Positions 22,294 to 59,639 of a stretch of DNA of 64,000 bases are shown piece by piece (within the stretch, counting starts at the first letter, position 1; every line of letters begins with the position of its first letter). Source of the DNA: a bacterium (GTDB lineage: Bacteria > Sysuimicrobiota > Sysuimicrobiia > Sysuimicrobiales > Kaftiobacteriaceae); the NCBI GenBank assembly GCA_036505015.1, contig DASXUC010000053.1, positions 38,232-102,231 of the forward strand, given 5' to 3'. The notes below the pieces were generated by a model. It saw only the letters and a program-made list of their open reading frames with translations, searched no databases and was not told where the DNA came from. The position numbers and the translations under genes were made by a program.

Positions 22294-22456
22294 GGGTACC
22301 GTTTCCCTCTCGATTGTTGATTTGCGTCCGTCACGCTGCTTTCTGCGATCGGCGGCCGGTTCCCCCTGCGTGATGTGCGGCGGAGACGTTCGCGCCGCGC
22401 CCAGCCCACCGCGTGCGGAGCAGGAGCGCAGGAGCCGATGGGGTATCCACGAGTCT

Positions 22457-25976: not shown

Positions 25977-26045
25977 CGATTGACCCTGGCAGCCGCATCG
26001 GTGGGACCTCACGGCTCCTGGCGCGGGGTCCGCGGGAGGGCATCG

Positions 26046-27329
26046 ATGACGCTGGGACAACAGCTGAGATCGGCCCGCCGGGCCCGTAAGATGACCCAGC
26101 GGGAACTTAGCGGGGGCACCCTGTCGGAAAGCTTCATCAGCATGGTCGAGCACGACAAGGTGCGCCCGTCGCTGGAGACACTCGAGCTGTTTGCGCGCCG
26201 ACTGAACGTGCCGGTCGCGACGCTCCTCGAGAGCATCCAGCCGTCTCAGCGCTCGACCGATCTTGAGATCCGTCGCTGCGAAGCGCTGCTCCGTCAGCAC
26301 CGGTTCACCGACGCGCTGGAAGGATTCTCGCGTCTGGCTCCGCTGGTCGCGAGGGATGGAGTTGAGGCGGCGGTTCGCGTGAGGTGTAGGCTCGGCCTGG
26401 GGCAGGCCCTGGCGGGTACGCGCCAGCTTGACTTGGCCGAGCCTCACCTGCAACAGGCGTACCAGGAGGCCCGCGAGGCCGGCGATCCCGGGCTCCTGGG
26501 CGCGGCGGCGAACGCCTGGGGATTCCTCTGCTTCCGCGCCAGGAAGTTCGCCCTCGCCCAGGAGGTCCTTGAAGAGGCCGCCTCGCGCCTGCGGGGCGTC
26601 TCGGAACATGGCGAGATGCTCGGAAAGATCCTCGCCAATCTCGGACGGGTGTTCGTCGAGTTGGGCCTGCCGGTGGAGGCGATGAAGATGTACCGGGAAG
26701 CCGGCGCACTGCTGGGTCCGTCCGCGGACCCTGCCCATCGCGCCTTGCTGCACTTCAACATGGGCATCGCCTCCGAGCAGCAGCGGGCCTTCGACCAGGC
26801 GCAGTGGCACCTGGACCAGGCCCTCGAACTGTTCCGTCTCCAGGAAAACATCCACCTGCTCTCCGTCGTGCAGCGCAGCATAGGCATCATGCGCCTGGAG
26901 CAGGGCGCCCCCGGCGATGCACTGGCGCCGCTGGAGCAGAGTCTGCGGCTCGCACAGCAGGTCGGCGACGCTGAAGGAACGGCGCAGTCGATGGTGGAGC
27001 TGGCCCGTGTGCACATCCGGACTGGGTCCGCCGCGGACGGACGGCGGCTGGCTACTGAGGCCGCGAAGGTCGCCGCCCGGATCGGTGATCCCTTAGAGGG
27101 CGCGCGCGCGGACCTGGTGCTGGCGGAAGCGGCGCAGGCGGCGGGTCATACCTCCGAGGCTCATTCCCGGCTCCGAACTGCGATTGCCGTCTTCGAGGGG
27201 CTGGGCGCGGCAGCCGATTTGGGCCGCGCGCACCGATCCCTCGGGGAATCGCTGCTCCGCACCGGCAGGCCGGCCGATGCCGCCGTGCACCTCGCCCGTG
27301 CGCTGGAGCTGATCGGCCGCAACCCATGA
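26046..27329 (+). CDS. XRE-family HTH + TPR regulator
   Basis: ATG 26046 (MTLGQQLRSARRARKMTQRELSG...SMVEHDKVRPSLETLELFARRLNV is an HTH_3 motif). TPR-like helical repeats fill the remaining ~350 aa. Confidence 0.75.
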   Translation: MTLGQQLRSARRARKMTQRELSGGTLSESFISMVEHDKVRPSLETLELFARRLNVPVATLLESIQPSQRSTDLEIRRCEALLRQHRFTDALEGFSRLAPLVARDGVEAAVRVRCRLGLGQALAGTRQLDLAEPHLQQAYQEAREAGDPGLLGAAANAWGFLCFRARKFALAQEVLEEAASRLRGVSEHGEMLGKILANLGRVFVELGLPVEAMKMYREAGALLGPSADPAHRALLHFNMGIASEQQRAFDQAQWHLDQALELFRLQENIHLLSVVQRSIGIMRLEQGAPGDALAPLEQSLRLAQQVGDAEGTAQSMVELARVHIRTGSAADGRRLATEAAKVAARIGDPLEGARADLVLAEAAQAAGHTSEAHSRLRTAIAVFEGLGAAADLGRAHRSLGESLLRTGRPADAAVHLARALELIGRNP

Positions 27330-31619: not shown

Positions 31620-31772
31620 TTACTCCCAGGTTGCCCCGGTAATCGTGAACCCGCCGCCTCCTGAAAGTACTGGATCCGAGGGCTTCCCGTTTCCATTGCC
31701 CCCCCAGGAGATCGACGTGGCCGCCAGCAGCATTGCTGCCACCAGCAGAGCGGTCATCAGCTTCTTGATCAT
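31620..31772 (-). CDS. 50-aa secreted Gly-rich peptide, paralog 1
   Basis: Below the ORF-track cutoff. RBS GAGAGGAGG. Product is MIKKLMTALLVAAMLLAATSISWGGNGNGKPSDPVLSGGGGFTITGATWE. Compared with paralog 2 over the aligned codons there are 11 synonymous versus 7 (mostly conservative) non-synonymous codon differences. Confidence 0.8.
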   Translation of the reverse strand: MIKKLMTALLVAAMLLAATSISWGGNGNGKPSDPVLSGGGGFTITGATWE

Positions 31773-31953: not shown

Positions 31954-32103
31954 TTACTCCCAGGTTGCCCCGGTAACGGAGAACCCGCCGCTTCCTGAGA
32001 GTACTGGATCCGCGGGCTTCCCGCCTCCATTCGCTCCCCAGGAAATGGACGTCGCCATCAACAGCATCGCAGCTACGAGCAGGGCGGTCAAAAAACTCTT
32101 CAT
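31954..32103 (-). CDS. 49-aa secreted Gly-rich peptide, paralog 2
   Basis: RBS GACGGAGG. Product is MKSFLTALLVAAMLLMATSISWGANGGGKPADPVLSGSGGFSVTGATWE. It shares the C-terminal TGATWE and central KP.DPVLSG with paralog 1. Confidence 0.8.
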   Translation of the reverse strand: MKSFLTALLVAAMLLMATSISWGANGGGKPADPVLSGSGGFSVTGATWE

Positions 32104-32148: not shown

Positions 32149-32164
32149 AGCAAGAAGCGTGCCA
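32149..32164 (-). promoter_or_regulatory. Sigma-54 (-24/-12) promoter for peptide paralog 2
   Basis: Minus strand reads TGGCACgcttcTTGCT (perfect consensus), 45 nt upstream of ATG 32103. Confidence 0.85.
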
Positions 32165-32273
32165 GTCACGGCCCAGTTGCAGCAAAATGAGTCCGTTATG
32201 TCACCGCATCACTTTTCTCGCGCCGCCGCGGCATGCTATCGTGCGTGCGCAGTCACGCGCAGGAGGGCCCCCC

Positions 32274-33620
32274 GTGTCGGTCAGCGCTCTGGTCGTCGAC
32301 GACGAAGAGAATATCCGCGGTCTGCTCCAGAAGATCCTGACCGAGGAAGGTTTCGATGTCGAGACCGCCACCACCGGCGAAGCCGGCCTGGAACGCTATC
32401 AGGCCCGTCCCTTCGACCTCGTGCTGGTCGACCTCCGCCTGCCCACGATCAGCGGGCTCGAGGTTCTCCAGAACCTTGTCTCCGCCGATCCCGATGCACT
32501 GGTCATCATCCTCACCGGCTACAGCACGGTGGAAACCGCGATCAAGGCGATCAAGCTGGGGGCGTACGATTACGTCGCCAAGCCGTTTCGCCCCGAAGAG
32601 TTGATGGTCGTGGTCAACCAGGCGCTGGAGCGGAACAGGCTGCTGAAAGAAAACCAGCTCCTGCAGCAGGAACTGATGGGCACGTTCAAGTTTCAGGGCA
32701 TCGTCGGTAACGCGCCCAGGATGCGGGAGGTGCTGGCGCTGGCCGCCCGGGTGGCGCCGACGGACGCGACCGTGTTGATCTTCGGCGAGACCGGGGCCGG
32801 CAAGGAGTTGCTGGCGCGATCGATCCACGCGCAAAGCGCGCGGGCCAACGGGCCGTTCGTGGTGGTGAACTGCGGCGCGATCCCCGAAACCCTCCTCGAA
32901 ACCGAACTGTTCGGCCACGAGAAAGGTGCCTTCACCGGCGCGGTGACCAGTCACGTCGGGCGGTTTGAGCGGGCGGCGGGCGGGACGATCTTCCTCGACG
33001 AGATCGGGGATATGAGCCCGGCGATGCAGGTGAAGTTGCTGCGCGTCCTGCAGGAGAAGGTGGTCGAGCGGGTCGGCGGCAGCAAGCCCATCGACGTCGA
33101 CGCCCGGGTGCTCGCAGCGACGCACAAGGACCTGCGCGAGGCGATCACCACCGGGCAGTTCCGGGAAGACCTGTACTACCGCCTCAGCGTGATGCCGCTG
33201 GTCGTGCCCCCGCTGCGCGATCGGGCCGATGATATCCCGATCCTGGCCGACTTCTTCATGAATAAGTACGCGGTGGCCTTCTCCAAGCGGATCAAGGGGT
33301 TTTCGCCGCTGGCGATGCGCCGGCTCCGCGCCCATCGCTGGCCCGGCAACGTGCGCGAGCTCGAGTACACCGTGGAACGCGCGGTCATTCTCGCCGCCGG
33401 ACCGATGATCGAGGCCGACGACATCTGGCTGGACGGGCAGAATGCCGATCCGACGAAGTTCCCCAAAGCGTACTCGCTGGTGGAAAGCGAGCGCCGGCAC
33501 ATCCAGGCCGTGCTGAAGATGACCGGCTGGAATCTGGATGACACCGCCGGCGTGCTGGGACTGGACCGCGACACCCTGCAGGACAAGATCACGACCCACC
33601 GGCTCGAGCCCGAATCGTAA
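32274..33620 (+). CDS. NtrC-family sigma-54-dependent response regulator (REC + AAA+ + Fis-type HTH)
   Basis: GTG 32274 preceded by AGGAGGG. Receiver [14 protein letters not shown]...[10 protein letters not shown]. Walker [15 protein letters not shown] loop (HEKGAFTGA). C-terminal [19 protein letters not shown]. Confidence 0.9.
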
Positions 33621-33668
33621 CCGCTGCCCCATGGCTGCCACATCCCCCCTCCGCCCGCAAAATGCGCG

Positions 33669-33684
33669 TGGCACGGAACTTGCT
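33669..33684 (+). promoter_or_regulatory. Sigma-54 (-24/-12) promoter for HD-GYP-rpoN operon
   Basis: TGGCACggaacTTGCT, 49 nt upstream of ATG 33734. Confidence 0.85.
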
Positions 33685-33733
33685 ACAGGCATCCGGCAGT
33701 GTCGTATGGTGCGAACGTGGCGCCGTGAGGTGA

Positions 33734-35206
33734 ATGCCGGTGATGCCGAAGGCGAAAGTCCTGATCGTGGACGACGAACCGTCGATCCGCGAGTTGTGCG
33801 CGAGAATTCTGGGAACCTCCTACGAAGTGGAGACGGCCCCCGACGGGCCCACGGCGATCCGCATGGCCGCAGCGGCGGCGCCTGATCTGTTGCTGGCCGA
33901 CCTGCGCATGCCTGGGATGAGCGGGCTCGACGCGGCGCGGCGGATCGTCGCCGATGCGCCCGAAGTCTCGGTCGTGATCATGACCGGGTTCAGCCAGTTC
34001 GACAGCCTGCTGGAGACCGTGCGGTTCGGCGTCAACGGTTTCGTACTCAAACCGTTCACGCCTGATGATCTCCGCCGGACCGTGGAAGACGGGCTGCGCC
34101 GCGGGCAGTACTTCAAACGTACCGCGCGGCTGCGCTCGCTGGCTCCGATCCTCGATCTGCGCGAAGGGAAGATCAACGGCGATCCGACCCGAATCTTCCA
34201 GACAATCTGTGAAACCGTGCAGCGTGAGCTCGACGCCGATTCGGTGACGCTGGTGGCGCTGGACGAAGACGGCCAGGAGGTGGCCGTCACATCGTCGGTG
34301 GGCAGTCCCGGCGCCGAGCCCGTCACCGTGACGCGGCGGCCCGGCGACGTCGACTGGGTCCCCCCGGTCGTGCCGACCAACGGCAACGGCAACGGGAACG
34401 GTACAGGGCACCACGACGACGGCCAGGTGTTGTCGATGCCGCTGCGCACCGGCGGCGCGGTGGTCGGGGCGCTCACCGTGAAGCGGCGCGATGGCCCGTT
34501 CACCGCGACGGACCGCGACCTGCTGCGGCTGATCTGTGCGCAGAGCAGCGTCGCCATCGAAAACATCCGGTTGTTCACGCACCTGCGCCAGTCCTACTGG
34601 AACACCGTCTATGCGCTGGCGGCGACCGTGGACCTGCGCGATCACCCGACGCGCGGTCACTCCGACCGGCTGGCGCGGTACGCGGTGGCGATCGGCGCCC
34701 GCTTGGGGCTGAAGCCCGACCGGCTCGACGATCTGAAGATTGCCGCGCTGCTCCACGATATCGGCAAGATCGGCATCGGCGACGGCGTGCTACTGAAGCC
34801 GGGCGATCTCACCGCCGAAGAGTACGACCAGATGAAGACCCACACCCTGATGGGCGCGAAAATCCTGGCCATGGCGGGGTTCTCGCCGCGTGTCGTCGAG
34901 GCGGTGCTGTTCCATCACGAACGCTATGACGGATCCGGGTACCCGCTGGGACTGCGGGAAGATCAGATCCCGCTGGAAGCGCGCATCCTCACCGGCGCCG
35001 ACGCGCTGGAGAGCATGACCAGTCCCCGCATGTACCGCCAGGCCATGCCGGTGCCCGCCGCCGTGACCGAGCTCGTGCGCGGGCGGGGGACGCAGTTCGA
35101 CCCGCAGATCATCGACGCCTTGATGGGGTGCCTGGATTCAGGAGAGTTCCACCAGTCACTGGCCGGTGGGCACGATTCGCTCCAGTTGCTCGCGGAGACC
35201 AGCTAA
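33734..35206 (+). CDS. Response regulator with GAF and HD-GYP (c-di-GMP phosphodiesterase) domains
   Basis: Receiver VLIVDDEPSIRELCARIL...DLLLADLRMPGMSG. HD motif LLHDIGKIGI. Intact HHERYDGSGYP. Confidence 0.85.
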   Translation: MPVMPKAKVLIVDDEPSIRELCARILGTSYEVETAPDGPTAIRMAAAAAPDLLLADLRMPGMSGLDAARRIVADAPEVSVVIMTGFSQFDSLLETVRFGVNGFVLKPFTPDDLRRTVEDGLRRGQYFKRTARLRSLAPILDLREGKINGDPTRIFQTICETVQRELDADSVTLVALDEDGQEVAVTSSVGSPGAEPVTVTRRPGDVDWVPPVVPTNGNGNGNGTGHHDDGQVLSMPLRTGGAVVGALTVKRRDGPFTATDRDLLRLICAQSSVAIENIRLFTHLRQSYWNTVYALAATVDLRDHPTRGHSDRLARYAVAIGARLGLKPDRLDDLKIAALLHDIGKIGIGDGVLLKPGDLTAEEYDQMKTHTLMGAKILAMAGFSPRVVEAVLFHHERYDGSGYPLGLREDQIPLEARILTGADALESMTSPRMYRQAMPVPAAVTELVRGRGTQFDPQIIDALMGCLDSGEFHQSLAGGHDSLQLLAETS

Positions 35207-36558
35207 TGGACCTCCGTATCGCCCCGCAGGCGAAAACCGGGCTGCACCAGCGCATGGTGCCCAAATTGATGATGGTGAACACCCTGCTGGTGCTGCCGCT
35301 GGACCAGTTGCTGGCCCGGATCGAGCAGGAACTGGCGGAGAACCCCGCGCTGGAACGCGACGACACCGTGCGCCCGGATGAGATCACCTGGTCGCGCGCC
35401 GGGGAGCGGTCCGCGGCGTCCTGGACGCCCGATGATGAGGATCGCGACCCGTTTGCGGGCCTCACGTCGTCGGTGAGCCTGCACGATCACCTGCTGCTGA
35501 CGCTGCAGGCCGAGCGCTTCACGCCGCGCGAGCACGCCATCGGCGCGCGGCTGATCGGCTACATCAACGATCGCGGGTACCTCGACGTCGCGATCGTGCA
35601 GGTCGCGCAGGAACTGAACGCGGAACCCGACGATGTCGAGCGCGTGCTGCGGCGTATCCAGCGGTTCGATCCGATCGGGATCGGCGCCCGCAGTGTGCAG
35701 GAATCGTTGAGCGTGCAGCTGGAGATGCTCGATGACGTGCCGGCGCGTCGGCTGGCCCAGCAGCTCGTCGCCGCGTACCTCACCCAGCTGGCCGAGCACC
35801 GGTTTGATGAGCTGGCGAAGGCGCTGGGGGCGCGCCCCGCGGAGGTCAAAGAGGCGCTGGCGTTTCTGCAGACCCACTGCTACGCGTCGCCCGGCGAGCG
35901 CTACCGCGCCGACCAGACCGGCGGCGCCGTCGCCCCGTCTGAGGTGGCCTATCCCGACGTGTTGATCCGTCGCACCGACGACGGCTTCGCGGTCGAGCTG
36001 ACGCATCAGGACGGCAGCGCCCTGCGCGTGAACGCCTTCTACGATGACCTGCGCCGCCAGCTCCGCCGCAGCGCGGGGTCGGGGGAGTGGTCCAAAGATC
36101 ACGTTCGCGACTACGTCACACGGGCGAAGTTGTTCGTCGAAGCCCTGCAGCGGCGCAACTGGACGCTGGCCAACATCGTCCAGGCCGTGGTCAGCGCGCA
36201 GTGGGAGTATCTCGACCGCGGCGACGCGCACCTGAAGCCGCTGACGAAAGCCATGATTGCGGCGGAGCTCGGCATCAGCGAATCTACGGTCAGCCGGGCG
36301 CTGGACAGCAAATTCGTGCAGCTGCCCAGCGGCCGGGTGAGCAGTTTCGACGTCTTCTTCGACCAGTCGGTGCCGGTGAAGGAGAAGATCCGCGCCATCG
36401 TCGCCGCCGAGCCGCACCCGCTGACCGACGAAGAGATCGCCACCGCCCTCACCCGCGTCGGCTACCGCGTCGCCCGCCGTACCGTCGCCAAGTACCGCGA
36501 AGCCATCTCCATCCCGCCGTCCACGAAGCGCACGCCGGCCCTCACCGCCGCCAGCTAA
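35206..36558 (+). CDS. rpoN: RNA polymerase sigma-54 factor
   Basis: ATG 35206 overlaps the upstream stop (TAATG). N-terminus MDLRIAPQAKTGLHQRMVPKLMMVNTLLVLP...LEQELAENPALE. RpoN box ARRTVAKYREAISIP at the C-terminus. Confidence 0.9.
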   Translation: MDLRIAPQAKTGLHQRMVPKLMMVNTLLVLPLDQLLARIEQELAENPALERDDTVRPDEITWSRAGERSAASWTPDDEDRDPFAGLTSSVSLHDHLLLTLQAERFTPREHAIGARLIGYINDRGYLDVAIVQVAQELNAEPDDVERVLRRIQRFDPIGIGARSVQESLSVQLEMLDDVPARRLAQQLVAAYLTQLAEHRFDELAKALGARPAEVKEALAFLQTHCYASPGERYRADQTGGAVAPSEVAYPDVLIRRTDDGFAVELTHQDGSALRVNAFYDDLRRQLRRSAGSGEWSKDHVRDYVTRAKLFVEALQRRNWTLANIVQAVVSAQWEYLDRGDAHLKPLTKAMIAAELGISESTVSRALDSKFVQLPSGRVSSFDVFFDQSVPVKEKIRAIVAAEPHPLTDEEIATALTRVGYRVARRTVAKYREAISIPPSTKRTPALTAAS

Positions 36559-36566
36559 GACCAAAA

Positions 36567-36648
36567 CTACCGTTGGTCGTTCGTCGTTGGTCGTTCATCG
36601 ACATTAACCACGAACGATGAACCACTAACGACGAACCATGAACGGTAG
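36567..36648. repeat. Long imperfect hairpin built of tandem heptamers (CGTTNNT) and complements, directly after rpoN
   Basis: CTACCGTTGGT CGTTCGT CGTTGGT CGTTCAT CG - acattaac - CACGAACG ATGAACC ACTAACG ACGAACC ATGAACGGTAG. Confidence 0.8.
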
Positions 36649-36655
36649 TCGAGCG

Positions 36656-36671
36656 TGGCACACCGGTTGCT
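36656..36671 (+). promoter_or_regulatory. Sigma-54 (-24/-12) promoter for GGDEF*-Roadblock operon
   Basis: TGGCACaccggTTGCT, 42 nt upstream of ATG 36714. Confidence 0.85.
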
Positions 36672-36713
36672 TCTATTACCAGCGAAGCACGTTGTGACAG
36701 GAGGCCGGACCCG

Positions 36714-37790
36714 ATGGCAGAGCGGATGCAGACAAAACGGACGGCGCCATCACCCACAGCACGCAATGGGTCGGCGCGCGGCGGACGGGGATGGACGGCG
36801 CCGGCGCGCGGGGGCCCGGCTGCGGTGGTGGAACTCGAACGCGAACCCCTTGTGGCCCGGCTCGCCGAACAAGCCGAGGAGATGGCGCTGCAGTTGGAGT
36901 GCATGAAGCTGGTGGATGAGGGCCTGCCCACCGAACAAGCGTACAAGCAGTTCCTCGACGTGATGCACCGCGCGGTGCCGTTTGAGCACGGCACCCTGTA
37001 CGTCGCGGAGTGGGAGACGGGCCGTCTCGCGCCCGTGGCCGTCCGCGGCGCCCGGGTGGACATGGCCGTCCGCGCGCCGTCTGCGGCCCCCGGTCCGTCC
37101 GGCTGGATGGTCCAAGCCAGCGCGAACGTCCGCGGCAGCGGCGACGGTGTGGTCGTTGACGGGACGCGGGGGGCGCTGGCCTTTCCGCTCATCCATAACG
37201 GACTGGTCGCCGGGGTCGTGGCGCTGGCCCGCCGCAACCGATCGTTCTCGGAGGAGGAGTCGGCCCGGCTGGCCCGCCTCGCGCACCCGCTGGTCACCAC
37301 GCTGTCCCGGCTGCGCCGCGAGGCGAGATTGCGGGAGCTGGTGTTCACCGACGTGCAGACCGGATTGAGCAACCGGCATCACTTCGTGGCCCGGATCGAG
37401 GAAGAGTTGCAGCGCAACCGTACGCAGGGGGGAGACTTCGTCGTGGCCGTCCTGGAACTGGCGGACGATCCGGCGGCCGCGGAGATGTCCCACACCCGCG
37501 TAGCGCAGTCGTTCGCCCGCGTCCTGCAGCGGTCGATGCGCGGCAGCGACGTGGCCTCGCACCTGGAAGACGGCCGGTTCGGCCTGCTGCTTGTCGGCGT
37601 GGGCCGGGAACAGGCCGTGTCCATCGTCGACCGGATCACGCGCAAGGTGCTGGCCGATCCAGAACTCGCCAACGACCGCAGCGCGATCCGTCTGCGGACC
37701 GGGCTCAGCGGGACGGGGACCGGCGTGCATTCGGTGGATGAGATGCTGGACGATGCAACCGCAGCGCTGGCGACGTTTGACGCCGCATGA
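36714..37790 (+). CDS. GAF-like domain + degenerate GGDEF domain protein
   Basis: GGDEF-domain start TDVQTGLSNRHHF. The active-site position reads SDVASHLEDGRFGLLL, i.e. EDGRF instead of GG[DE]EF. Confidence 0.75.
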   Translation: MAERMQTKRTAPSPTARNGSARGGRGWTAPARGGPAAVVELEREPLVARLAEQAEEMALQLECMKLVDEGLPTEQAYKQFLDVMHRAVPFEHGTLYVAEWETGRLAPVAVRGARVDMAVRAPSAAPGPSGWMVQASANVRGSGDGVVVDGTRGALAFPLIHNGLVAGVVALARRNRSFSEEESARLARLAHPLVTTLSRLRREARLRELVFTDVQTGLSNRHHFVARIEEELQRNRTQGGDFVVAVLELADDPAAAEMSHTRVAQSFARVLQRSMRGSDVASHLEDGRFGLLLVGVGREQAVSIVDRITRKVLADPELANDRSAIRLRTGLSGTGTGVHSVDEMLDDATAALATFDAA

Positions 37791-37827
37791 CGACACACAG
37801 ACATCGATGCTCAGAGGAGGAACGGAC

Positions 37828-38319
37828 ATGGAATCGTTGAGTGGTGCACTGCGCACGATGAAGACGCGATCGCTGGCCGAATCGGCGTTCGTAGCGTCAT
37901 CCGACGGGCTGGTGCTCGACGCGATCAGCGACGACGGGGTGGCGGTGGACTCCATCGCCGCGTACGCGGCCGGCAGCGTGTCGGTGGCGGAACGGATGGG
38001 CGAGGACGCCGAGCTCGGCGCCCCGCAGTCGGTCATCCACCTCTACGGCAACAAGACGCTGATGATCGCCCCGGTGGGCCCGGCCCTCCTGGTGCTCGTC
38101 GGCAACGGGCGCTCACAGCTGGGGATGATGCGCGTCCAGCTGCAGGCCGGTCTGGCAGATCTCCGCAGCGCCTTGGAGCGGGATCTGTTCGGACCCGGCG
38201 CCGAGCAGCCCGCGGCCGACGCGTCGGCGCCGGCCAGCGCCCCGGCGGCGACGAACGGTCACACGACCCCGGCGCGTCCCAACCTGGACGCGATTCTCGA
38301 AGCGGCGGTGGCCCGCTAA
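37828..38319 (+). CDS. Roadblock/LC7 (MglB-like) domain protein with Ala/Pro-rich tail
   Basis: ATG 37828 preceded by GAGGAGG. SAFVASSDGLVLDAI...IHLYGNKTLMIAPVGPALLVLVG is the Robl/LC7 pattern. Confidence 0.7.
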   Translation: MESLSGALRTMKTRSLAESAFVASSDGLVLDAISDDGVAVDSIAAYAAGSVSVAERMGEDAELGAPQSVIHLYGNKTLMIAPVGPALLVLVGNGRSQLGMMRVQLQAGLADLRSALERDLFGPGAEQPAADASAPASAPAATNGHTTPARPNLDAILEAAVAR

Positions 38320-38334
38320 GGCACGGAAGTTGCT
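38319..38334 (+). promoter_or_regulatory. Sigma-54 (-24/-12) promoter for secreted protein A
   Basis: AGGCACggaagTTGCT, 127 nt upstream of GTG 38462. Confidence 0.7.
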
Positions 38335-38461
38335 CGCGGAATGAACAAAATACGGCGCAGAATGTACTTGCCAATGGTCCCGCGCGTCGATAGCATGATG
38401 GTGTTGCAGCCGCAGTGCACGGTCCGCGGCCGCAGCACTATCTCGACGGGCGGGACGTGGC

Positions 38462-38893
38462 GTGTTCGCCTACACAGCGCGGCACGGGAATCGGATCTGG
38501 CGCTTCGCCACAGCAATCCTCGCGGGATTGGCCGTGCTCGCCGCGCTGCAGATGCCAGTGCGCGCGCAGTCCTCTGCTTCCGTGATCTCCATCTCCGTGC
38601 CGGTCGCCCAGGTGCTCGACGGCGCAACCGTCAGCGCCGTGCCTGCGGGAACCCTTGTCAGTGGGCAGCTGACCGTGAAGAGCAACGTGCCGTGGATGCT
38701 GGTGGTCAACGTCGACACCGGCGAGCCCGCGCTGGTCACCTGGTCGCCTGAGGCCCTCTGGCAGCCACTTCCCGCACACGGCGTGGTCCTGCAAGGTCCC
38801 AAGGGCATTCATCACCTGATCTACCGCCTGCGCGCGGCGCCCGCCGCGAAGCTGCAGACGATCGTCCGCTTCTCGCTCTCGCCCTCCCCGTAA
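38462..38893 (+). CDS. Secreted small beta-sandwich-like protein A (putative fibre/pilin-like subunit)
   Basis: Signal peptide ...LAALQMPVRAQS. Motif LTVKSNVPWMLVVNV is shared with protein B. The C-terminal strand is TIVRFSLSPSP. Confidence 0.55.
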   Translation: MFAYTARHGNRIWRFATAILAGLAVLAALQMPVRAQSSASVISISVPVAQVLDGATVSAVPAGTLVSGQLTVKSNVPWMLVVNVDTGEPALVTWSPEALWQPLPAHGVVLQGPKGIHHLIYRLRAAPAAKLQTIVRFSLSPSP

Positions 38894-38971
38894 GACCAGC
38901 GGTTGACTTTTTTTCGTCCTGATGTCCTAGGACGTATTTCCTATTCCCGGCGGGCCGCCGCCCGGGTCCGG

Positions 38972-38987
38972 TGGCACCGAAGTTGCT
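38972..38987 (+). promoter_or_regulatory. Sigma-54 (-24/-12) promoter for protein B / chaperone-like / usher-like operon
   Basis: TGGCACcgaagTTGCT (perfect consensus), 66 nt upstream of ATG 39054. Confidence 0.85.
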
Positions 38988-39053
38988 CATCTGGTATTCC
39001 GGGAGCAGATTGATGCTCAGATACGACATCACCGGAATTCAGGAGGGCTACAG

Positions 39054-39554
39054 ATGAGCACGTATCTCGGGTTCGCGCGCATCGCTATCATCGCCGTACT
39101 GCTGGTAAGTCTCGCCGCCGGAGCCGGATTCGGTGCCGCTGGTGGGTCACAGAGCGTGACCACCGCGGCGGCGGCAGGCATCGACATTACCGTATCGGGA
39201 TCCGCGTCGATTGCTTCGACCGCGCCGGGGGCCTGCGGCACGAGCGGCACGACCGTCAACGTCAAGAGCAACAAGGCGTGGAACCTGCAGGTCCGTTCAG
39301 ATCCGTCGAGTTATTCGAACGGAAAGGCGAAGAACGGGACCACGGAGATGACCGACGCCTTCCAGTACAAGGGCGGCGACGTCTCCTCGTACACGGCGAT
39401 CACGGCATCGTACGGGAACCTCTACAGCTCAAACCAGGTCAAGACCACAGGTTCAGGCGTGGACGTGAGCGTTAACTATCAGCAGTGCGTGGAGTATGAG
39501 GACTCGCCGGGCAACTACACGATCGTCGTTGAGTACCTCGGCGTCCAGCCGTAG
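39054..39554 (+). CDS. Secreted small beta-sandwich-like protein B (putative fibre/pilin-like subunit)
   Basis: RBS AGGAGGG and a signal peptide. Carries the VNVKSNKAWNLQVRS motif. The C-terminal PGNYTIVVEYLGVQP is reminiscent of the terminal strand of CU pilins, SCPU and WxL-type domains. Confidence 0.6.
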   Translation: MSTYLGFARIAIIAVLLVSLAAGAGFGAAGGSQSVTTAAAAGIDITVSGSASIASTAPGACGTSGTTVNVKSNKAWNLQVRSDPSSYSNGKAKNGTTEMTDAFQYKGGDVSSYTAITASYGNLYSSNQVKTTGSGVDVSVNYQQCVEYEDSPGNYTIVVEYLGVQP

Positions 39555-39566
39555 CGGTCCACGGAT

Positions 39567-40397
39567 GTGACGGGGGCGCGGGTCCAGACGATGCGGGCTA
39601 GAGTGCGGGGGATCACGCTGGCCTGCGCCCTCTTCCTCTTCACGGCGGCGCTGCCGCTGCACGCCGACACCCTGCGGTTCGGGCTCACGCCCCCGGACGT
39701 CGAATTGGTCCCCGCTCCGGGCGGCACCGCCAGCGGCACCCTGGTCGTCTACAATCGTTCCACCCGAGCGCTGCACTTCCGCGTGGTGACCCAGGATATG
39801 TTCATCCGTCCCAGCGGGGTGATGGAAGTCCTGAAGCCCGCCAGCACGGCATGGTCGGTGGCGGCGGCGACCCGTCTGGCGCCGGCGGAGTTCGATCTCG
39901 ATCCCAATCAGCAGATGGCGGTGCGGGTGGTCGTCACCGCTCCCCGCGACGCGCGGGGCGGTTTGTACGGCGCGATCGTCGTCTCGCCGACGCCCATGCT
40001 GCAGTCGAACGGCCCGCGCGGCACGTTCGCGGTCGTCGCCCCGAAGCTGGCGGCGCGGCTGCTCGTGCCCATTGACGGCACGACGGCGCTGCAAGGCGCG
40101 ATCGTCAACATGCTTGCGGCCGCCGTTCCCGGAAAGGGCGTCGACGTCAAAGTCGCCTTCCGCAACAGCGGCAACGTGCACGTGCGTGCCGACGGCGTGA
40201 TCACGCTGCTCCGCAACGGCGACGTGGTGGCCAGGGCTCCGATGGAAGAGTCGCTGGTGCTGCCGGGCACCGTACGGGAGTTCCGGCTGCTCCTGCCCAC
40301 CGGCCGTCTGGCCCCCGGCTCGTACACCGTCCGGGCTGTGATGGACTTCGGCGGCGACGTCATGGTCGCCGGGGAAGTTCTGTTCGTCTCCCGGTGA
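39567..40397 (+). CDS. Secreted two-Ig-fold protein (PapD/DUF916-like putative chaperone)
   Basis: Signal peptide (ITLACALFLFTAALPLHA). Two ~110-aa beta-rich halves (GTLVVYNRSTRALHFRV...; VKVAFRNSGNVHVRADGVI...PGSYTVRAVMDFG). The start may be ATG 39591. Confidence 0.5.
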   Translation: MTGARVQTMRARVRGITLACALFLFTAALPLHADTLRFGLTPPDVELVPAPGGTASGTLVVYNRSTRALHFRVVTQDMFIRPSGVMEVLKPASTAWSVAAATRLAPAEFDLDPNQQMAVRVVVTAPRDARGGLYGAIVVSPTPMLQSNGPRGTFAVVAPKLAARLLVPIDGTTALQGAIVNMLAAAVPGKGVDVKVAFRNSGNVHVRADGVITLLRNGDVVARAPMEESLVLPGTVREFRLLLPTGRLAPGSYTVRAVMDFGGDVMVAGEVLFVSR

Positions 40398-40412
40398 GCC
40401 CGGTCGCCTCCC

Positions 40413-42830
40413 ATGCGGCTTCTCCGTTCCGCACTCGCCGGGTGCGTCGCAGCCCTCCTGATCTGGGCCGCGCCCACGTCTGCCGCCGCCGCGTCGCCGG
40501 CGGTGCGCGTGTTTCTTGACGACGCTCAGTCCAGCGCGCTGACCGCGCTCATCCTCAACGAGGCGTTGTACTTCCCCCTGCGCGCGCTCGCCGTGTCGCT
40601 GCGGGCCACGCTGACCGTCAAGGGCGTTGAGCTGGAGGTCCGGCGCGCGGATGGCCGGGTGTTTATGGTGCGCGTGGGACGCCGGGAGATCTGGGCCGAT
40701 GCCCAGGTGATCGCGCTGGCCGAATCGCCGGTCCTGCTCGTCAATGGGATTACGATGGCGCCGCGCGGCGCCGTCGAGACGATGTTCGACGCCTTGGTCA
40801 TCTGGAACAAGGAGGAGAACACCGCGACGCTCGTGACGCAGGCCGCCTTTCATCCTGCCGAACCGGTCCCCGCCCCCATCCGAGCGAGCGTCAGACCCAT
40901 CGCGAAAACCGTGACGACGTTCGCGCCCGAGTTTCAGCCGGTGCGGGAGCGCCCGGTCGTGGCGTCGGGCACCGTGGGGGTCACGCTGTCTGCCAGCGGA
41001 TCTGCTCTGTCGGTCTCGTCGCATCTGGCGTTTGTGTCGCAGGGTGAGAGCGGCACGATCCGCGGTGCGTTCGGCATCGGCTCCGGCGCGAACGGGCCGG
41101 CCGGAGCCGAAGGCATCCTGACCTGGCGCCGCGGGTCCTCGCTGCTCTCGGCGGGGGTGTTGTCGATCTATGATTCTCCGCTCACGCTGTATGAGCAGGG
41201 CTTCGTGGGGCTGATGTACGATCAGCGTTTGGGCAGCATCCAGACCCGTTTCTTCGGCGGGATGCTGCCCGGCTCCGGCGGTTCGGTCTACGGGATGTCC
41301 ATCCGCCTGCCGCAGGTCGGCTCGCTGCTGGCCGAAGCCACGCTGCTGTACAGTCCGGAGGCCAACGCGACGATCGCGCGCGGCCGCGTCGACTGGCGCC
41401 TCCGCCCCGGCGTGTCGCTGTTCGGGGAGGTCGCCGTCGGCACGTCGGCGGCAGGATCGGGCCTGGGCTGGCGGTCCGGGGTGGAGTACGCCTCGGATCG
41501 ATGGACGATCTCACTCAGCTACCTGTCGCTGGGACCCCGCTTCCCGACGTTGGGCAACGCCGCCGTGTTTGCCGGACGCCATGGGCCTGTCATTGAGCTG
41601 GCCTACCATCCGAACTCGCGCTGGCTCGTGCTGGCGAGCGCCGCCCTGCTGGCGGGGGAGCCGGGCATCCCGAGCCGGCTGGCCTACCGCGTCTTCCTGC
41701 AGTATCAAATCTCTGCGTCGCTCGCGGTGGTGGGGGAAGCCCGCAGCACCGACGAGCCGGTGAACGGCGTGCGCGTGCGCCGCGATTCGGCGCAGGTTTC
41801 ACTGCTGTACACGTCGGGCCGCTGGAACGCCGCGCTGACCGCGGGGAAGGGGCTGGATGAGCAGGCCGGGCGGACCACCGCCAACAGCGCATCGGTCTCG
41901 CTGCGCGCGGGGTACGTTCTCTCCAACGGGTGGCCGGTGTGGGGCGAAGCGAGCGCGCTGATCGGCGATACCCGCGGGTGGGTGCTGAGCGCCGGGACGA
42001 GGTTCAAGGTGAATTCGCGGTTCGACCTGACCGCGCAGCTGCGCAGTAAGACGATCGTCTGGCCGAGTCCGTCGGCAGAACGGGCCGTCGAGCTGGGCAT
42101 CGTGCATCCGCTGGCGTCCGGTGGGCAACTCAGCGTGGGCGCGGGCGTCAAACTGACCTCCTCGTCTGCAGCCGCGCCGTATCTGACCATCGGCTACACG
42201 CGACCGTTCACCGTCTTTGGGCCGCTGCGCGTGGGCCAGGTGGCCGCCGACGTCTTCATCGATTCCAACGGCAACGGGCGGCGCGATCCCGGCGAGCCGG
42301 GCGTGGCCGGCGTGGTCATCCGCCTCGATGCGCGCAGCGCAGCGCGCACCGACGCCGCGGGGCATTCGACGGTGGAGGGCGTGCGCGAGGGAGAGTACGG
42401 GGTGTCGGTGGATGAAAATACGGTCCCCGTCGGACTCGTTGCCCAGCAGCCCGAGACGCGCGTACGGATTACCGCCGACGGCCGCACCACCATCAGCTTT
42501 GGGCTGATCCCCGCCGCCGCGCTGCGGTGTGTCGTGTATCTGGACGAGAATGGCAACGGCGTGCGCGAGAAGACTGAGCACGGGATCTCCGACGTGTCAG
42601 TGCTGCTACAGCCACTGGGTCGGCGCATCATCTCAGATGCCGATGGGGTGCTGGTGTTCGGAGACCTGCGGTCTGGGGCCTACACGGCGGTGATCGATGC
42701 CAGCGTGCTGCCGGCGGGGCTCAAGATGGGAGGTCCGGGAACCTTCACGACGACGCTGGCGGCCGGCGGATCGGCGTCGTGTGAGCTGCCGGTGCTCAAC
42801 GCGAAGCCCATCGTGGTCACCTTCCCCTAA
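40413..42830 (+). CDS. 805-aa secreted protein: copper-amine-oxidase-N-like domain + beta-barrel-like core + two SdrD-B/CnaB-like domains (putative usher-like platform)
   Basis: Signal peptide. LNEALYFPLRALAVSLRATL...LLVNGITMAPRGAVETMFDALVIW is the Cu_amine_oxidN1 pattern. A ~450-aa region of alternating amphipathic strands follows (ISLSYLSLGPRF, VFLQYQISASLAVVGEARS, VSLLYTSGRWNAALTAG, GWVLSAGTRFKVNSRFDLTAQLRS). The C-terminal repeats read DSNGNGRRDPGEPGVAGVVIRLD and DENGNGVREKTEHGISDVSVLL. Confidence 0.6.
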   Translation: MRLLRSALAGCVAALLIWAAPTSAAAASPAVRVFLDDAQSSALTALILNEALYFPLRALAVSLRATLTVKGVELEVRRADGRVFMVRVGRREIWADAQVIALAESPVLLVNGITMAPRGAVETMFDALVIWNKEENTATLVTQAAFHPAEPVPAPIRASVRPIAKTVTTFAPEFQPVRERPVVASGTVGVTLSASGSALSVSSHLAFVSQGESGTIRGAFGIGSGANGPAGAEGILTWRRGSSLLSAGVLSIYDSPLTLYEQGFVGLMYDQRLGSIQTRFFGGMLPGSGGSVYGMSIRLPQVGSLLAEATLLYSPEANATIARGRVDWRLRPGVSLFGEVAVGTSAAGSGLGWRSGVEYASDRWTISLSYLSLGPRFPTLGNAAVFAGRHGPVIELAYHPNSRWLVLASAALLAGEPGIPSRLAYRVFLQYQISASLAVVGEARSTDEPVNGVRVRRDSAQVSLLYTSGRWNAALTAGKGLDEQAGRTTANSASVSLRAGYVLSNGWPVWGEASALIGDTRGWVLSAGTRFKVNSRFDLTAQLRSKTIVWPSPSAERAVELGIVHPLASGGQLSVGAGVKLTSSSAAAPYLTIGYTRPFTVFGPLRVGQVAADVFIDSNGNGRRDPGEPGVAGVVIRLDARSAARTDAAGHSTVEGVREGEYGVSVDENTVPVGLVAQQPETRVRITADGRTTISFGLIPAAALRCVVYLDENGNGVREKTEHGISDVSVLLQPLGRRIISDADGVLVFGDLRSGAYTAVIDASVLPAGLKMGGPGTFTTTLAAGGSASCELPVLNAKPIVVTFP

Positions 42831-53550: not shown

Positions 53551-54023
53551 TGCACACGTCCTGGCACCGCATTTCGATCCTGGCGGTGGTCATGGTCACC
53601 GCGGTGGCGACCGGGTGCGCCCGGCGGCAGCCATCCGCCGCACCACCCGCGCCATCGACCACCGCGCCGCCTTCGGCCTCCACTCAGATTGGATCGATCA
53701 CGTTCGCCCGCGGCGAATCGAACGGCAGCCCCCAGGATCCTGGGGATCACTTTCCTGCCGGGGTGAGTCGCGTCTACGGCTTCTTCACCTTTGCAGGGCT
53801 GAAGGCCGATGACGTCGTGCGCGGCGTCTGGACGGAGGGCGGACGCCAGATTCTCGAGAAGCACCTCACACTCCCGGAAGTATTTAGCGGCCGGACGCCA
53901 GACAAGGGGACCCTGTGGCTGTGGATCCAATGGGCCAAAGGCGCACCGGCGGGGACGTTCCAGTTGGACATCAGCGTGAATGGAACCGTGATGCAGTCGG
54001 GGACCTTTGTCGTGGAGCCGTAG
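53547..54023 (+). CDS. Lipoprotein with single beta-sandwich-like domain
   Basis: Lipobox AVATGC. The C-terminal APAGTFQLDISVNGTVMQSGTFVVEP resembles the first folded domain of the next protein (FAPGDYRVELKVSGG). Confidence 0.55.
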   Translation: MMHTSWHRISILAVVMVTAVATGCARRQPSAAPPAPSTTAPPSASTQIGSITFARGESNGSPQDPGDHFPAGVSRVYGFFTFAGLKADDVVRGVWTEGGRQILEKHLTLPEVFSGRTPDKGTLWLWIQWAKGAPAGTFQLDISVNGTVMQSGTFVVEP

Positions 54024-54043
54024 CCGTGGCTCGCCCAGCCCGC

Positions 54044-57000
54044 ATGCACATGAGACGCGCCGGGGTCGTTGGGGTCGTGCTGCTGGCGTTGATCATCGCG
54101 GCCTGCGGCGGGCCGCAGGGAGCGCGGCGTCCCCGCGTCACCCCGGGACCTGAATCCACCCCGGCCCCTGCGCCGTCGCCGCCCCCGGCGCCCGCCCCGG
54201 CGCCGGCTCCACCACCGCCGCCGACTCCGGCGCCGACTCCCGCTCCGGCACCACCGCCGCCGACTCCGGCGCCGACGCCCGCTCCGGCACCGGCGCCCAC
54301 GCCCGCGCCGACCCCACCTGCGCCCCCCTCGCCGTCGTTTGAGGCCGTCCTGGCCGCCGGGGTGAGCGCGCAGCACGAGCCGGTTTCGCCGACGACCGAA
54401 TTCGTGGAGAACGCGGAGAAGATCTACCTTGCGGTGACATCGCATGCATCGTCGTCGATCCTCGTGTCGTCGACGTGGATCGCTGTGGATGCCGAAGGGT
54501 ACGATCCGAACCAGCAGATCGGCGAGTTCAACCTCAGTCTGGATCCGAACCAGCGCGGCTCGATGTGGATCGGCGCGCCGCGCGGGGGATTCGCCCCAGG
54601 CGACTACCGCGTCGAGCTGAAGGTGTCCGGCGGCGGGTCGCGGCGCTCCCTGGACTTCAAGATCACGCCGCTGCTGCCCCCCGCCGCCCTGCTCACTCCT
54701 GCTGATGCCCCCCGCGGCTTCAACATCGCGCAGTCGGCCCTGGGCGGAAAGGTCGTCAGTGCGACCTCGGAGTACAACGACCGGGATTGGGCGGCCGCGA
54801 ACCTCGTCGACGGCGGCCCCGACGGATGGTCCACGAAGGATCAGACCGTCCCGCAAGAGGTCGTGTTGTCGTTTTTCGGCGGGCGGACGGCGCAGATCGG
54901 CGCCATCGTCATCGACACCGCCACGAAAGAGACGTTGAACACGCCGGACCGGATGCCCAAACTTGTCGAGGTGTGGGTCTCGACCACCAGCGCGACCGAC
55001 GGCTTCACGAGGGTTGCCGGCGCGCGCCTGGCGCGGCGGGCGGTGGAACAACTCATCACGCTGCAGCCGGTCGCCGCGAAGTTCGTGAAAATCCGGTTCC
55101 TCTCCAACCACGGCGGCAGCTACACGCAGGCCGGAGAGATCAAGATCTTTGAAGTGCCCACGGCGAGCTCGATCCTCGCGGACATCCCCAAGAACCTCGC
55201 GCTCCCCGGCCTGGGAGGGTCGGTCGTTCGGTTCACCTCGCAGTCCGGCAGCGGGCACGGCGCCATCCAGCTGGTGGACAACGTCGTGGAGTCGGCCGGG
55301 TGGCGGTCCGCCGACGACTATCTCCCGCAGGACCTGGTGTTTGCGTTCCGCGGCGACCAGACCGCGCTGATCGACCGGATCGTGCTGAACCCCAAGACCA
55401 ACGAGGACCCTTCGACGTGGGTGAAGACGTTCACCGTCGCGGTGTCCGCCGAGACGCCGCTGGATGGGTTCGTGGAGGTTGGGCAGTTCACGCTCACCCA
55501 GGACCCGAAGGATCAGGCGTTTCAGATCAGGCGGCGGGCCCGCTTCGTGAAGGTGCGCATCCTCAAGAACTACGGGGGCCGCTCCACAAGCCTCGGCGAG
55601 GTGAAGATCATCGAGGGGTCGGCCCCGGGCTATGAATCGATCCTGATTTCGCCGATCGCCGCGGCCGCGTCGGCGGCGGCGGGCGTGCAGCCGGTCGACG
55701 AGACCGGCATCGCCGTCGAGAAGGAATCCAACAACACGCCGGCGGACGCCAATCCGCTGGCGTGGGGTCGGCGCACCAAAGGGACGATCGATCCGCTCGG
55801 CGAGTTCGACTACTTCAAGCTCACGCTGCCGCCGCCGGCGCCCGTGCTGACCCTTGAACTGCTCGGTCGGCCGTACATTCGCACCTCGCTCGCCCTGCTC
55901 GATGGATCGGGCACACCGGTGAAGCGGTTCGATCCCGGCGCCGTCCCCTCCGACCATGCCGCATGGACGTGGGCGATGGCCCCCGGCGACTACACCGTCC
56001 AGGTGACCGAGCCGCCGATTTCGATCGTGCTGATCTGGGACACCTCCGGCAGCATGTCCGGCAGCTATAAGGACCTGGAGGTCGCCGTCCAGGGATACCT
56101 CGACCAGGTGGGATCCAGCGAGCGGCTGGCGCTGATCCGGTTCAGCGACAAGGTCGAGGTGCTGCAGGGAGAGTTTACCAGCGACCACGACCGCCTCAAG
56201 GCGGCGGCGCAGGGCAAGTTCTTTGCCAAGGGCGGCACCCCATTCTACGACGCGATCGCGAAAGGCATCGACCTGCTCAGCGGGGTGACGGGCAACCGCG
56301 CCATCATCGTGATGACCGACGGCGAGGACACCGCGAGCAAACTGCATTACCCGGAGTTCTGGCGCCTGCTGGAGGAACGCCGCATCCGGCTGTACACGAT
56401 CGGGCTGGGCGATGAACTGCAGCGGTTCACCAACGAGATCGCCAGCACTCCGGCCCAGATGATGGCGCACATCGCGATGGCGACGAACGGCCGGTCCTTC
56501 TTTGCCCGCACCAGCGAGGACCTCAAAGGTCTCTACCAGCAGATTGCAACGGAGCTGCGCACGGTCTCGACCTACTATCTCAAGCCGTCGCTAAGCAGCG
56601 GCCCGGGGGCCTTGAGCGTAGTGGCCACCGGCGAGCGCATCGCCGCCGTGTCGGCGCCCAGCCAGATCGAGTTGATTCTCGACGCGTCGGGCTCCATGAA
56701 GCTGCGGGTGGAGGGTCGGCCGAAGATCGATATCGCCAAAGAGGTCATGGCCCAGATCATCAAGGGTCTGCCCAACGACGCGCAGGTCGCGCTGCGCATC
56801 TACGGCCACCGCATCCGCGAGGGCCGGAGCGGCGACTGCCAGGATTCGCAGCTCGTCTTCCCGTTCGGCAAGATCGACAAGCCGCGGATGCTGGCGAGGG
56901 TCCGGGAGGTCAACGCGCTGGGGACGACGCCGATTGCCTACTCACTGAAGCAGGTGGCGCGCGATTTCGGCCGGGCGCGCGGCGAGAAGATGGTCATCCT

Positions 57001-59580: not shown

Positions 59581-59639
59581 AGGATCGCGCTAAACGCGCG
59601 CCACGGTCCGTACCAAAACTGGGGGGTGGAGGTGCAAAG

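Follow-up and report, generated by a model that had tools for sequence, protein, structure and literature searches.

The stretch of DNA analysed here, called the window, comprises 64,000 nt of contig DASXUC010000053.1 from a bacterium of the Kaftiobacteriaceae. Positions are given in window coordinates, unless they carry a label of the type L003, L004 or L007-9, which denotes a comparison locus that was fetched. The subject is a module of four open reading frames (ORFs), A, B, C and D, which lie in the same direction on the + strand at 38462-42830, at the positions stated by an earlier sequence-only reading of the same DNA. That reading had likened the module to the clusters for chaperone-usher (CU) pili by its gene order, i.e., subunit, subunit, chaperone-like protein and platform, and this order is confirmed from the ORFs. 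CU pili are made by a textbook assembly pathway of Gram-negative bacteria, which is defined by a few well-known protein families. By sequence, the module is placed outside both the classical and the archaic CU families. Judged from the predicted folds of its proteins, it is probably a very divergent system of the CU type, which under sigma-54 control would build an usher-dependent donor-strand surface fibre in a diderm bacterium. The four genes are:

38462-38893, + strand: gene A, 143 amino acids (aa), secreted, short paralogue of the subunit family
39054-39554, + strand: gene B, 166 aa, secreted, candidate for the major subunit
39567-40397, + strand: gene C, 276 aa, chaperone candidate, predicted soluble periplasmic protein with two Ig-like domains
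40413-42830, + strand: gene D, 805 aa, usher-like, putative outer-membrane platform

The genes B and C are separated by 12 nt and C and D by 15 nt, and the gap between A and B measures 160 nt. Other gene callers place the start of gene C at 39591, which results in a protein of 268 aa. Signal-peptide-like N-termini are present on all four proteins, and the GC content at third codon positions (GC3) of the four genes, 0.81-0.88, is typical of the window genes. B, C and D also share one reading frame (39054-42830), in which they are parted by single stop codons plus 4-5 codons.

D was described earlier as an usher-sized protein with a copper-amine-oxidase-N-like domain at its N-terminus and two SdrD-B-like domains at its C-terminus. 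Pfam indeed recognizes Cu_amine_oxidN1 at aa 44-139 (E 2.5e-8) and SdrD_B twice from aa 613 (E 5e-17). An AlphaFold2 (AF2) model of D, made from an alignment of 8 sequences, has a pLDDT of 69.8 and a pTM of 0.41, with the barrel region mostly in the 80s. The following parts are distinguished:

40542-40829, + strand (aa 44-139): Cu_amine_oxidN1-like N-terminal domain, small alpha/beta in the model (aa 46-126), in the place of the usher N-terminal domain (NTD)
40956-42218, + strand (aa 182-602): predicted transmembrane (TM) barrel, about 24-26 long antiparallel strands by DSSP with turns of 2-6 residues
41172-41201, + strand (aa 254-263): invariant loop DSPLTLYEQG between barrel strands 5 and 6, of low pLDDT, the most conserved motif of the family
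42231-42800, + strand (aa 607-796): two SdrD_B/CnaB-like beta-sandwiches with calcium-type motifs DxNGNGxxD, in the place of the usher C-terminal domains (CTD1/CTD2)

In the model, a disordered linker is present at aa 126-179. The other highly conserved element of the family is PTLGNAxxFAGxxGP (aa 374-392), and the invariant residues of the C-terminal domains are D617, N619, G620, N621 and D625 as well as D711, E712, N713 and G714. Two 15-residue invariant loops are found in the model, at aa 250-264 and 374-388, and the strand map holds no plug insertion of about 80 aa. It is suggested that these two loops may gate or constrict the pore.

When the model of D was compared with the PDB using Foldseek, the top 15 matches were all FimD/PapC ushers, with E-values of 7e-17 to 2e-8 over about 750 aligned columns. 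The isolated translocation domain of FimD (3ohn) is matched with a target-normalised TM-score of 0.53. OccK/OpdK porins and AlgE come next at 1e-7, some eight orders of magnitude behind the ushers. The usher-like nature of the 805-aa protein, and the membrane barrel that was to be looked for in it, are thus borne out by a predicted barrel with an usher layout, at the moderate confidence of the model. At the sequence level, a relation to ushers is not seen. The Usher family (PF00577) matches neither D nor 17 D-like proteins of other phyla, hhalign of D against FimD, SfmD, HtrE and YehB gives a probability of 0.1%, and PDB sequence searches with D return an SdrD match to the C-terminal domains only. 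For the D, C and B families together, hhalign against the ushers, chaperones and pilins of E. coli K-12 stays at or below 10%, no better than the cross-family controls, and no profile-profile signal leads from the module families to the Fim, Sfm, Yad and Yeh proteins of E. coli. The parts are therefore as non-canonical as was claimed from the sequence, as illustrated by the lack of any Pfam Usher, PapD, Fimbrial or SCPU match above threshold.

C is the chaperone candidate. Its AF2 model, based on 41 sequences, is a confident one (pLDDT 87.8, pTM 0.75) and consists of two beta-sandwiches, at aa 38-168 and 177-275. The single part of low confidence is a hairpin at aa 144-157, located just before the last strand of domain 1, and such a soft hairpin is the look expected of a flexible donor loop. 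In the Foldseek comparison, the top three matches are the WxLIP structures 9i1y/9i25 from Enterococcus faecium, including the WxLIP-WxL complex, at an E-value of 3e-13. They are followed by approximately 40 CU chaperones of all classes, among which CfaA, FimC, Caf1M, SafB, DraB, CsuC and CupB2, at about 1e-8 and with target-normalised TM-scores of 0.5-0.58. The 276-aa protein had been described as a two-Ig-fold protein like PapD or DUF916 in size and layout, and structure prediction and Foldseek agree on an Ig-like chaperone fold that is best matched by WxLIP (DUF916/DUF3324) and then by PapD-like proteins. C has a signal peptide, carries neither a conserved lipobox nor a C-terminal TM helix, and ends in a beta-strand (aa 267-275). 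Lipoprotein status was considered for both C and D and rejected, as the Cys in each signal peptide is unconserved or too early. The last-strand motif of C, PGSYTVRAV, resembles PGNYTIVVEY of the subunits closely enough for MAFFT to misalign C and the subunits.

Sequence families give faint traces of C at most. Pfam reports NPCBM_assoc and CARDB for C, both below threshold, and NCBIfam adds none. Among 25 members of the C family, sub-threshold traces were seen of NPCBM_assoc (19/25), WxLIP_HBD (4/25), PapD_C (3/25, best E 0.013) and WxLIP_PGBD (1/25), and one relative, in L013, has a sub-threshold WxLIP match at 0.003. PapD_N was absent from all 25, and C is not PapD-like by sequence (PF00345/PF02753). 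The probability given by hhalign for the C family against the chaperones of E. coli K-12 is 1%, and PDB searches by sequence and by profile yielded weak or spurious matches only, for C as for B. One C homologue is independently named 'PapD' in the JGI annotation. Three Arg residues are invariant in the C family, namely R81, R130 and R237. In PapD, Arg8 and Lys112 are the basic cleft residues that anchor the C-terminus of the subunit.

The two small proteins A and B are the subunit candidates. A contains TVKSNVPWMLVV and has the C-terminus TIVRFSLSPSP, and B contains NVKSNKAWNLQV and has the C-terminus PGNYTIVVEYLGVQP; the motifs that were quoted for both proteins in the sequence-only reading are all present as written. 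Neither protein matches a Pfam or NCBIfam family. An alignment of 36 close homologue clusters of B shows that the signal peptide ends at about AxG and is followed by a conserved mature N-terminus, GSQxVTVAAAAxIDITVP. In the window this N-terminal extension reads GSQSVTTAAAA and is strand-like. Further features of the family are the motif NVKSNKxWNLQIRS, two invariant Cys (C61 and C145) and a pilin-like C-terminal strand, YTIVVEYLGVQP. When 1.84 billion representatives were scanned in full by HMMER with the B profile, 146 relatives were identified, mostly of 150-200 aa and matched end to end. For this superfamily of secreted proteins of about 165 aa, no Pfam or NCBIfam model exists.

Family scans covered 135 members of the B superfamily and gave faint matches to DUF4402 (4/135), SCPU (2/135, best E 0.02), the pilin model NF058581 of the Pam pili from the Candidate Phyla Radiation (CPR; 4/135, at 9e-4 or weaker) and the small LPXTG protein family of enterococcal WxL clusters (7/135). 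Among PDB sequences, the superfamily profile matched a FimA-like pilin weakly over its full length (E 0.021, partly driven by the signal peptides), and the WxL chain of 9i25 was not recovered. SCPU (PF05229) has no match for A or B of the window, and NF058581 has none for B. W-x-L and (F/Y)xLxxxP motifs gave rise to the idea that A and B are WxL domains. It has no profile support, as the WxL domain (PF13731) was found in neither protein at E<=1 and in none of the 135 superfamily members at E<=2.

The N-terminal half is common to A and B, and it is over this half only that A matches the hidden Markov model (HMM) of the subunit superfamily (single-target E 9e-9). After the signal peptide, A-like proteins start with QSS-x-V-I-V-P, without the GSQxVTV segment of about nine residues that is found in B. 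A-like genes are present in the window, in L003 and L005 and, on the opposite strand, in L011 and L102. L004 and L007-9 lack them, which makes A an accessory component. Because A has no N-terminal donor segment, it is a candidate tip or initiator subunit; the tip subunits of CU pili and PamT of the Pam pili likewise have no donor strand, and by analogy A may be the subunit at the distal end. The subunits may have an incomplete Ig fold that is completed by strand donation. The conserved N-terminal extension of B, absent in A, is consistent with a donor-strand feature.

The gene set and its order are conserved. Homologues of D fall into nine clusters of 41-74% identity among 5.8 billion proteins. 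Three full-length relatives were identified in 185,579 species-representative genomes, and JGI metagenomes contributed three others. Every D-bearing locus, at least 15 loci down to 38% identity, has the order subunit-C-D (B, C, D). A close relative, represented by the metagenome-assembled genomes carrying P0079, is labelled Armatimonadota bacterium by NCBI, and Armatimonadota is a Gram-negative phylum.

To delimit the wider family, all fetched loci were searched with the HMMs of C, D and the subunit superfamily. In about 20 loci of other diderm phyla, which had been fetched solely via the SdrD_B domains of D, the gene for the SdrD_B-bearing protein of 670-1150 aa is immediately preceded by a C-like gene (E 1e-6 to 1e-39). 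Altogether, a C-like gene directly upstream of a D-like gene was seen in about 35 loci across phyla. The pairing of C and D extends beyond the source lineage. Such pairs occur in Bipolaricaulota, Omnitrophota, Solibacteraceae, Halanaerobiales and uncultured Firmicutes as well as in Sphingomonadales, Variovorax, Arenimonas, Pseudoxanthomonas and Lysobacter enzymogenes ATCC 29487. The C-like gene of Hyphomonadaceae lies on the opposite strand, close to the gene for a large protein that, like D, combines Cu_amine_oxidN1, a weak OMP_b-brl and SdrD_B. The central barrel region of D could not be linked to the D-like proteins of other phyla by HMM, jackhmmer or hhalign, and the high full-length hhalign scores between them stem from the terminal domains. 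That the platforms of different phyla are homologous is therefore argued from the terminal domains, the size and the conserved C-like neighbour, the central regions being unalignable.

The Lysobacter locus (NZ_FNOG01000008.1, L085 2057-6648) has the same gene order as the window and codes for proteins of 208, 209, 266 (C-like) and 659 aa (D-like). The two proteins in the subunit position are secreted and end in ...YTASMP and ...YTLSAP; they were tried as members of the B superfamily and rejected, as the match is not significant. The 659-aa protein has one C-terminal SdrD_B-like domain, recognized by sub-threshold SdrD_B/CarboxypepD_reg matches only. None of the four proteins has a significant Pfam family, and a tblastn search of plasmids with the D-like protein gave no match.

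Usher-less clusters of a C-like gene and members of the same subunit superfamily occur as well. L092/L093 (L092 4703-9751) code for a subunit of 161 aa, for a protein of 962 aa whose subunit domain is C-terminal and for a C-like protein of 457 aa, which in L092 has a hydrophobic C-terminus with a GGIII-like TM region. L094 (2787-8335) encodes two subunits and a short paralogue of 115 aa, next to a sigma-54 activator, as well as a C-like protein of 484 aa, in which domain 2 occurs in two additional copies, and a larger protein with a C-terminal subunit-like domain.

The control regions of the module and the regulatory features upstream of it are:

38319-38334, + strand: sigma-54 type -24/-12 promoter before A, aGGCACGgaagTTGCT, read directly
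38972-38987, + strand: sigma-54 type -24/-12 promoter before B-C-D, TGGCACcgaagTTGCT, perfect consensus
38915-38944, + strand: hairpin between A and B, weakly terminator-like by consensus scan, with a 7-bp stem followed by a T-rich tail
32149-32163, - strand: sigma-54 site preceding a small secreted-peptide gene
33670: sigma-54 site preceding the gene for a response regulator (RR) with GAF and HD-GYP domains (RR-GAF-HD-GYP) and rpoN
36657: sigma-54 site preceding a GAF-GGDEF gene
32187-33620, + strand: response-regulator/sigma-54 activator, i.e., a bacterial enhancer-binding protein (bEBP), with Pfam Response_reg, Sigma54_activat and HTH_8
35206-36558, + strand: rpoN (sigma-54), with Pfam Sigma54_AID, Sigma54_CBD and Sigma54_DBD, 2 kb upstream of the module

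Both aGGCACGgaagTTGCT and TGGCACcgaagTTGCT have the spacing GG-N10-GC, with GG at -24 and GC at -12. Exact sites of the form GGCAC-N5-TTGCW were observed five times in the window vs 0.25 expected, and all five fall within 32.1-39.0 kb (cluster 32149-38987), the two that remain besides those at 32149, 33670 and 36657 preceding A and B. Sigma-54 sites are found at the same relative places in orthologous loci. A counterpart of the A promoter is present upstream of the A orthologues in L003 and L005, and in L003, L005, L007, L011 and L012 the B orthologue is preceded, at a distance of 54-148 nt, by a perfect TGGCAC-N5-TTGCT. The D proteins of these promoter-bearing loci are 38-66% identical to D of the window, where stated. 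The two sigma-54 promoters recognized earlier at 38319 and 38972 are thus real and conserved; the correction to be made is that both are part of a local regulon that comprises five sigma-54 sites. The hairpin between A and B is at best suggestive, since terminator-like sites are not enriched over shuffles.

Besides rpoN and the bEBP gene, a GAF histidine kinase and a single-domain response regulator are encoded just upstream of the module. Together with the five clustered sites, the presence of rpoN, bEBP and kinase indicates that the module is one arm of a local sigma-54 regulon. The bEBP gene is also found in L003 and L007-9, and rpoN is syntenic in L003, L005 and L007-9. Given its proximity, the bEBP is the probable activator of both module promoters. 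As the stop of the RR-GAF-HD-GYP gene overlaps the start of rpoN and a site is present at 33670, sigma-54 may drive its own gene. In L004, the module is preceded by an HTH-TPR regulator and has no sigma-54 site. An HTH_3-TPR regulator of 449 aa in the window (25980-27329, + strand), 12 kb upstream, is 29% identical over its full length to that of L004 (E 5e-27), and may by this resemblance be an alternative or additional regulator of the module.

Other genes surround these regulators. The GAF-GGDEF protein (36714-37790, + strand) has EDGRF at the position of the GGDEF motif and is therefore probably not an active cyclase. It is followed, directly upstream of the module, by a Roadblock/LC7 (MglB-like) protein (37828-38319, + strand). 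In L007-9, a sigma-70-family gene (263 aa) is located between the GAF-GGDEF and Roadblock/LC7 genes, and a weak FlgN-like gene farther upstream. Upstream of the HTH_3-TPR gene of the window, a 1047-aa AAA/NB-ARC-TPR-BTAD (SARP/AfsR-like) regulator is encoded (22178-25321, + strand). Two paralogous ORFs of 49-50 aa, at 31620-31772 and 31954-32103, both on the - strand, code for a signal peptide and a Gly-rich mature peptide of about 25 aa that ends in GATWE, e.g., ...SWGANGGGKPADPVLSGSGGFSVTGATWE. It is the second of them (31954-32103) that the sigma-54 site at 32149-32163 precedes, and L003 and L007-9 have two or three such ORFs, with sigma-54 sites, in the same position. These small peptides could have a signalling or antimicrobial function within the same sigma-54 regulon. 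At the other side of the module, a run of large genes without evident link to it (53915-62051, + strand) encodes a protein of 1174 aa (F5/8 type C, Sad1_UNC and VWA), a transglutaminase-like one of 714 aa and a protein of 712 aa without Pfam match.

A working mechanism can be proposed in which A, B, C and D are exported by Sec. In the periplasm, the soluble two-Ig protein C would cap newly exported subunits by lending them a beta-strand. D would form a barrel of 24-26 strands in the outer membrane, with its Cu_amine_oxidN1-like NTD and its two SdrD_B domains replacing the NTD and CTD1/2 of the usher. At D, B subunits would polymerise head-to-tail, the GSQxVTV... extension of each being inserted into the preceding subunit, and the fibre would exit through the barrel. 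A, which has no extension and has its own promoter, may start or cap the fibre at its distal end. The neighbouring histidine kinase, bEBP and RpoN would switch the module on.

Several points weigh against the proposal of a usher-built fibre. The module has no sequence homology to any CU family in Pfam, NCBIfam or hhalign, so that the argument is one of predicted folds. Of these, the D model is only moderate in its pLDDT (69.8), pTM (0.41) and number of sequences (8), its Foldseek TM-scores are low (0.3-0.5) and no plug-sized insertion is visible in its barrel. C resembles WxLIP more closely than it does the CU chaperones, and WxLIP has been proposed as an anchor of surface proteins rather than as a polymer builder (PMC10599100). 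Moreover, the outer membrane of the host is inferred and is not evident from the window.

The predicted folds alone do not separate the fibre from its main rival, a WxL-type surface display complex, in which C would stabilise single A or B proteins and D would be an exit or anchor. Such a complex is rather unlikely. The best structural matches of C are indeed WxLIP proteins, including the WxLIP-WxL complex, and relatives of C have sub-threshold Pfam matches to WxLIP, but C has no membrane anchor. The usher-less relatives show a WxL layout of small subunit, 962-aa protein and C-like protein with hydrophobic C-terminus, whereas a WxL domain is found neither in A and B nor in the 135 scanned superfamily members. 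In addition, D matches ushers, i.e., polymerisation platforms, over its full length, B has its conserved strand-like N-terminal extension, and the related CPR Pam system polymerises by donor-strand exchange (10.64898/2026.03.03.709456). It is improbable that D is a substrate channel or exporter, for polysaccharide or small solutes, that is unrelated to co-transcribed but independent A-C. The Foldseek matches of D to OccK/OpdK porins and AlgE are significant (1e-7) and no plug domain is seen in D, but ushers outrank the porins by about eight orders in alignments that include the flanking domains. The pairing of a C-like gene with a D-like gene right behind it, which recurs in about 35 loci from different phyla, also argues against a channel, as does the absence of polysaccharide synthesis genes flanking the module. 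There is very little probability that the module makes a secreted matrix or amyloid fibre (TasA/curli-like) or a proteolytically primed type V pilus with a superficial likeness to CU systems. Small beta-rich secreted subunits do lie here in a regulatory island of biofilm style (GGDEF, HD-GYP, sigma-54), but neither a SipW-type peptidase gene nor a CsgG/CsgE/CsgF-like gene is present nearby, A and B have no lipobox or LPXTG motif, PDB profile searches gave no TasA or camelysin match, and the folds of C and D indicate parts of the CU type.

If the module is a divergent CU-type fibre system, the CU pathway would be much more widespread and older than current annotation shows. An usher/chaperone architecture without detectable sequence similarity to the CU families would then exist in a barely known lineage, and C-/D-like pairs are also found in Acidobacteria, Omnitrophota, Bipolaricaulota, Halanaerobiales and several Proteobacteria. 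As C resembles WxLIP more than the classical chaperones, the module may link pilus systems that are treated as unrelated. A broader view, put forward tentatively and with some doubt, is that of an old, widespread and unannotated branch of donor-strand fibres that joins CU pili, WxL/WxLIP clusters and Pam pili. This branch would combine a WxLIP-like chaperone lineage with one subunit superfamily, using an usher in diderms and a membrane-anchored chaperone alone in bacteria without outer membrane. An usher-bearing or similar form would have gone unrecognised in cultured Proteobacteria, e.g., Lysobacter enzymogenes. The combination of a WxLIP-like chaperone with usher-less subunit clusters would offer a concrete test of a common origin of WxL, Pam and CU, and would bear on how fibre systems changed upon gain or loss of the outer membrane. 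L. enzymogenes ATCC 29487, a cultured strain whose cluster is ordered as in the window, opens the question to experiments.

Among the known systems, some fibre types were considered and set aside: sortase-dependent pili for want of an LPXTG motif, type V pili for want of a lipobox and the TasA/SipW system for want of a signal peptidase gene. In the literature, nothing was found that links WxL proteins to ushers, deals with CU systems in Armatimonadetes or mentions DUF4402.

The Pam pili of CPR bacteria are donor-strand-exchange pili with PapD/FimC-like chaperones outside the classical CU families (bioRxiv 10.64898/2026.03.03.709456). Their membrane-anchored PapD-like chaperones (PamC/D) have been proposed to assemble pili without an usher (10.64898/2026.03.03.709456). 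The weak matches of 4/135 B-superfamily members to the Pam pilin model NF058581 are a point of similarity, as is the single-domain tip pilin PamT, which without a donor strand parallels A, and the usher-less clusters L092/L093 and L094 resemble the Pam operon. However, Pam pilins have two domains, and in the window C is predicted to be soluble and an usher-like D is present. On account of its usher and soluble chaperone, the module is not classed as a Pam system.

WxL clusters of Firmicutes consist of a small WxL protein, a large WxL protein and WxLIP (DUF916, DUF3324 and a TM helix), and their layout is like that of the L092/L093 and L094 clusters (PMC9772566). WxLIP carries a C-terminal membrane helix and is predicted to insert a beta-hairpin strand into WxL (PMC10599100). 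The similarity lies in C, whose model is closest to the E. faecium structures 9i1y/9i25, and in the three-part layout of the usher-less relatives L092/L093. By contrast, a TM helix is missing from C of the window, no WxL domain is detectable in A and B, and there is an usher-like outer-membrane partner, an apparently diderm host and no LPXTG partner. The module does not count as a WxL cluster, since a WxL domain, an anchored WxLIP and a monoderm host are all lacking.

With CU pili (Fim/Pap and the archaic Csu/CupE), the module shares its composition of one or more subunits, a periplasmic two-Ig protein and an outer-membrane protein of about 800 aa. In the models, D fits FimD/PapC best and C matches FimC, Caf1M, CfaA, CsuC and CupB2. 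A strand-like N-terminal extension and a last strand like that of pilins are further shared features, on the side of the subunits. The module differs in having no sequence similarity to Usher, PapD_N/C, Fimbrial or SCPU, in the Cu_amine_oxidN1-like NTD and the SdrD_B/CnaB-like CTDs with calcium-type motifs of D, in two invariant loops instead of a visible plug insertion, in about 26 DSSP strands vs 24, and in its sigma-54 control. Altogether, the models suggest that the module works most like a CU system, with a chaperone that is structurally closest to that of the WxL clusters.

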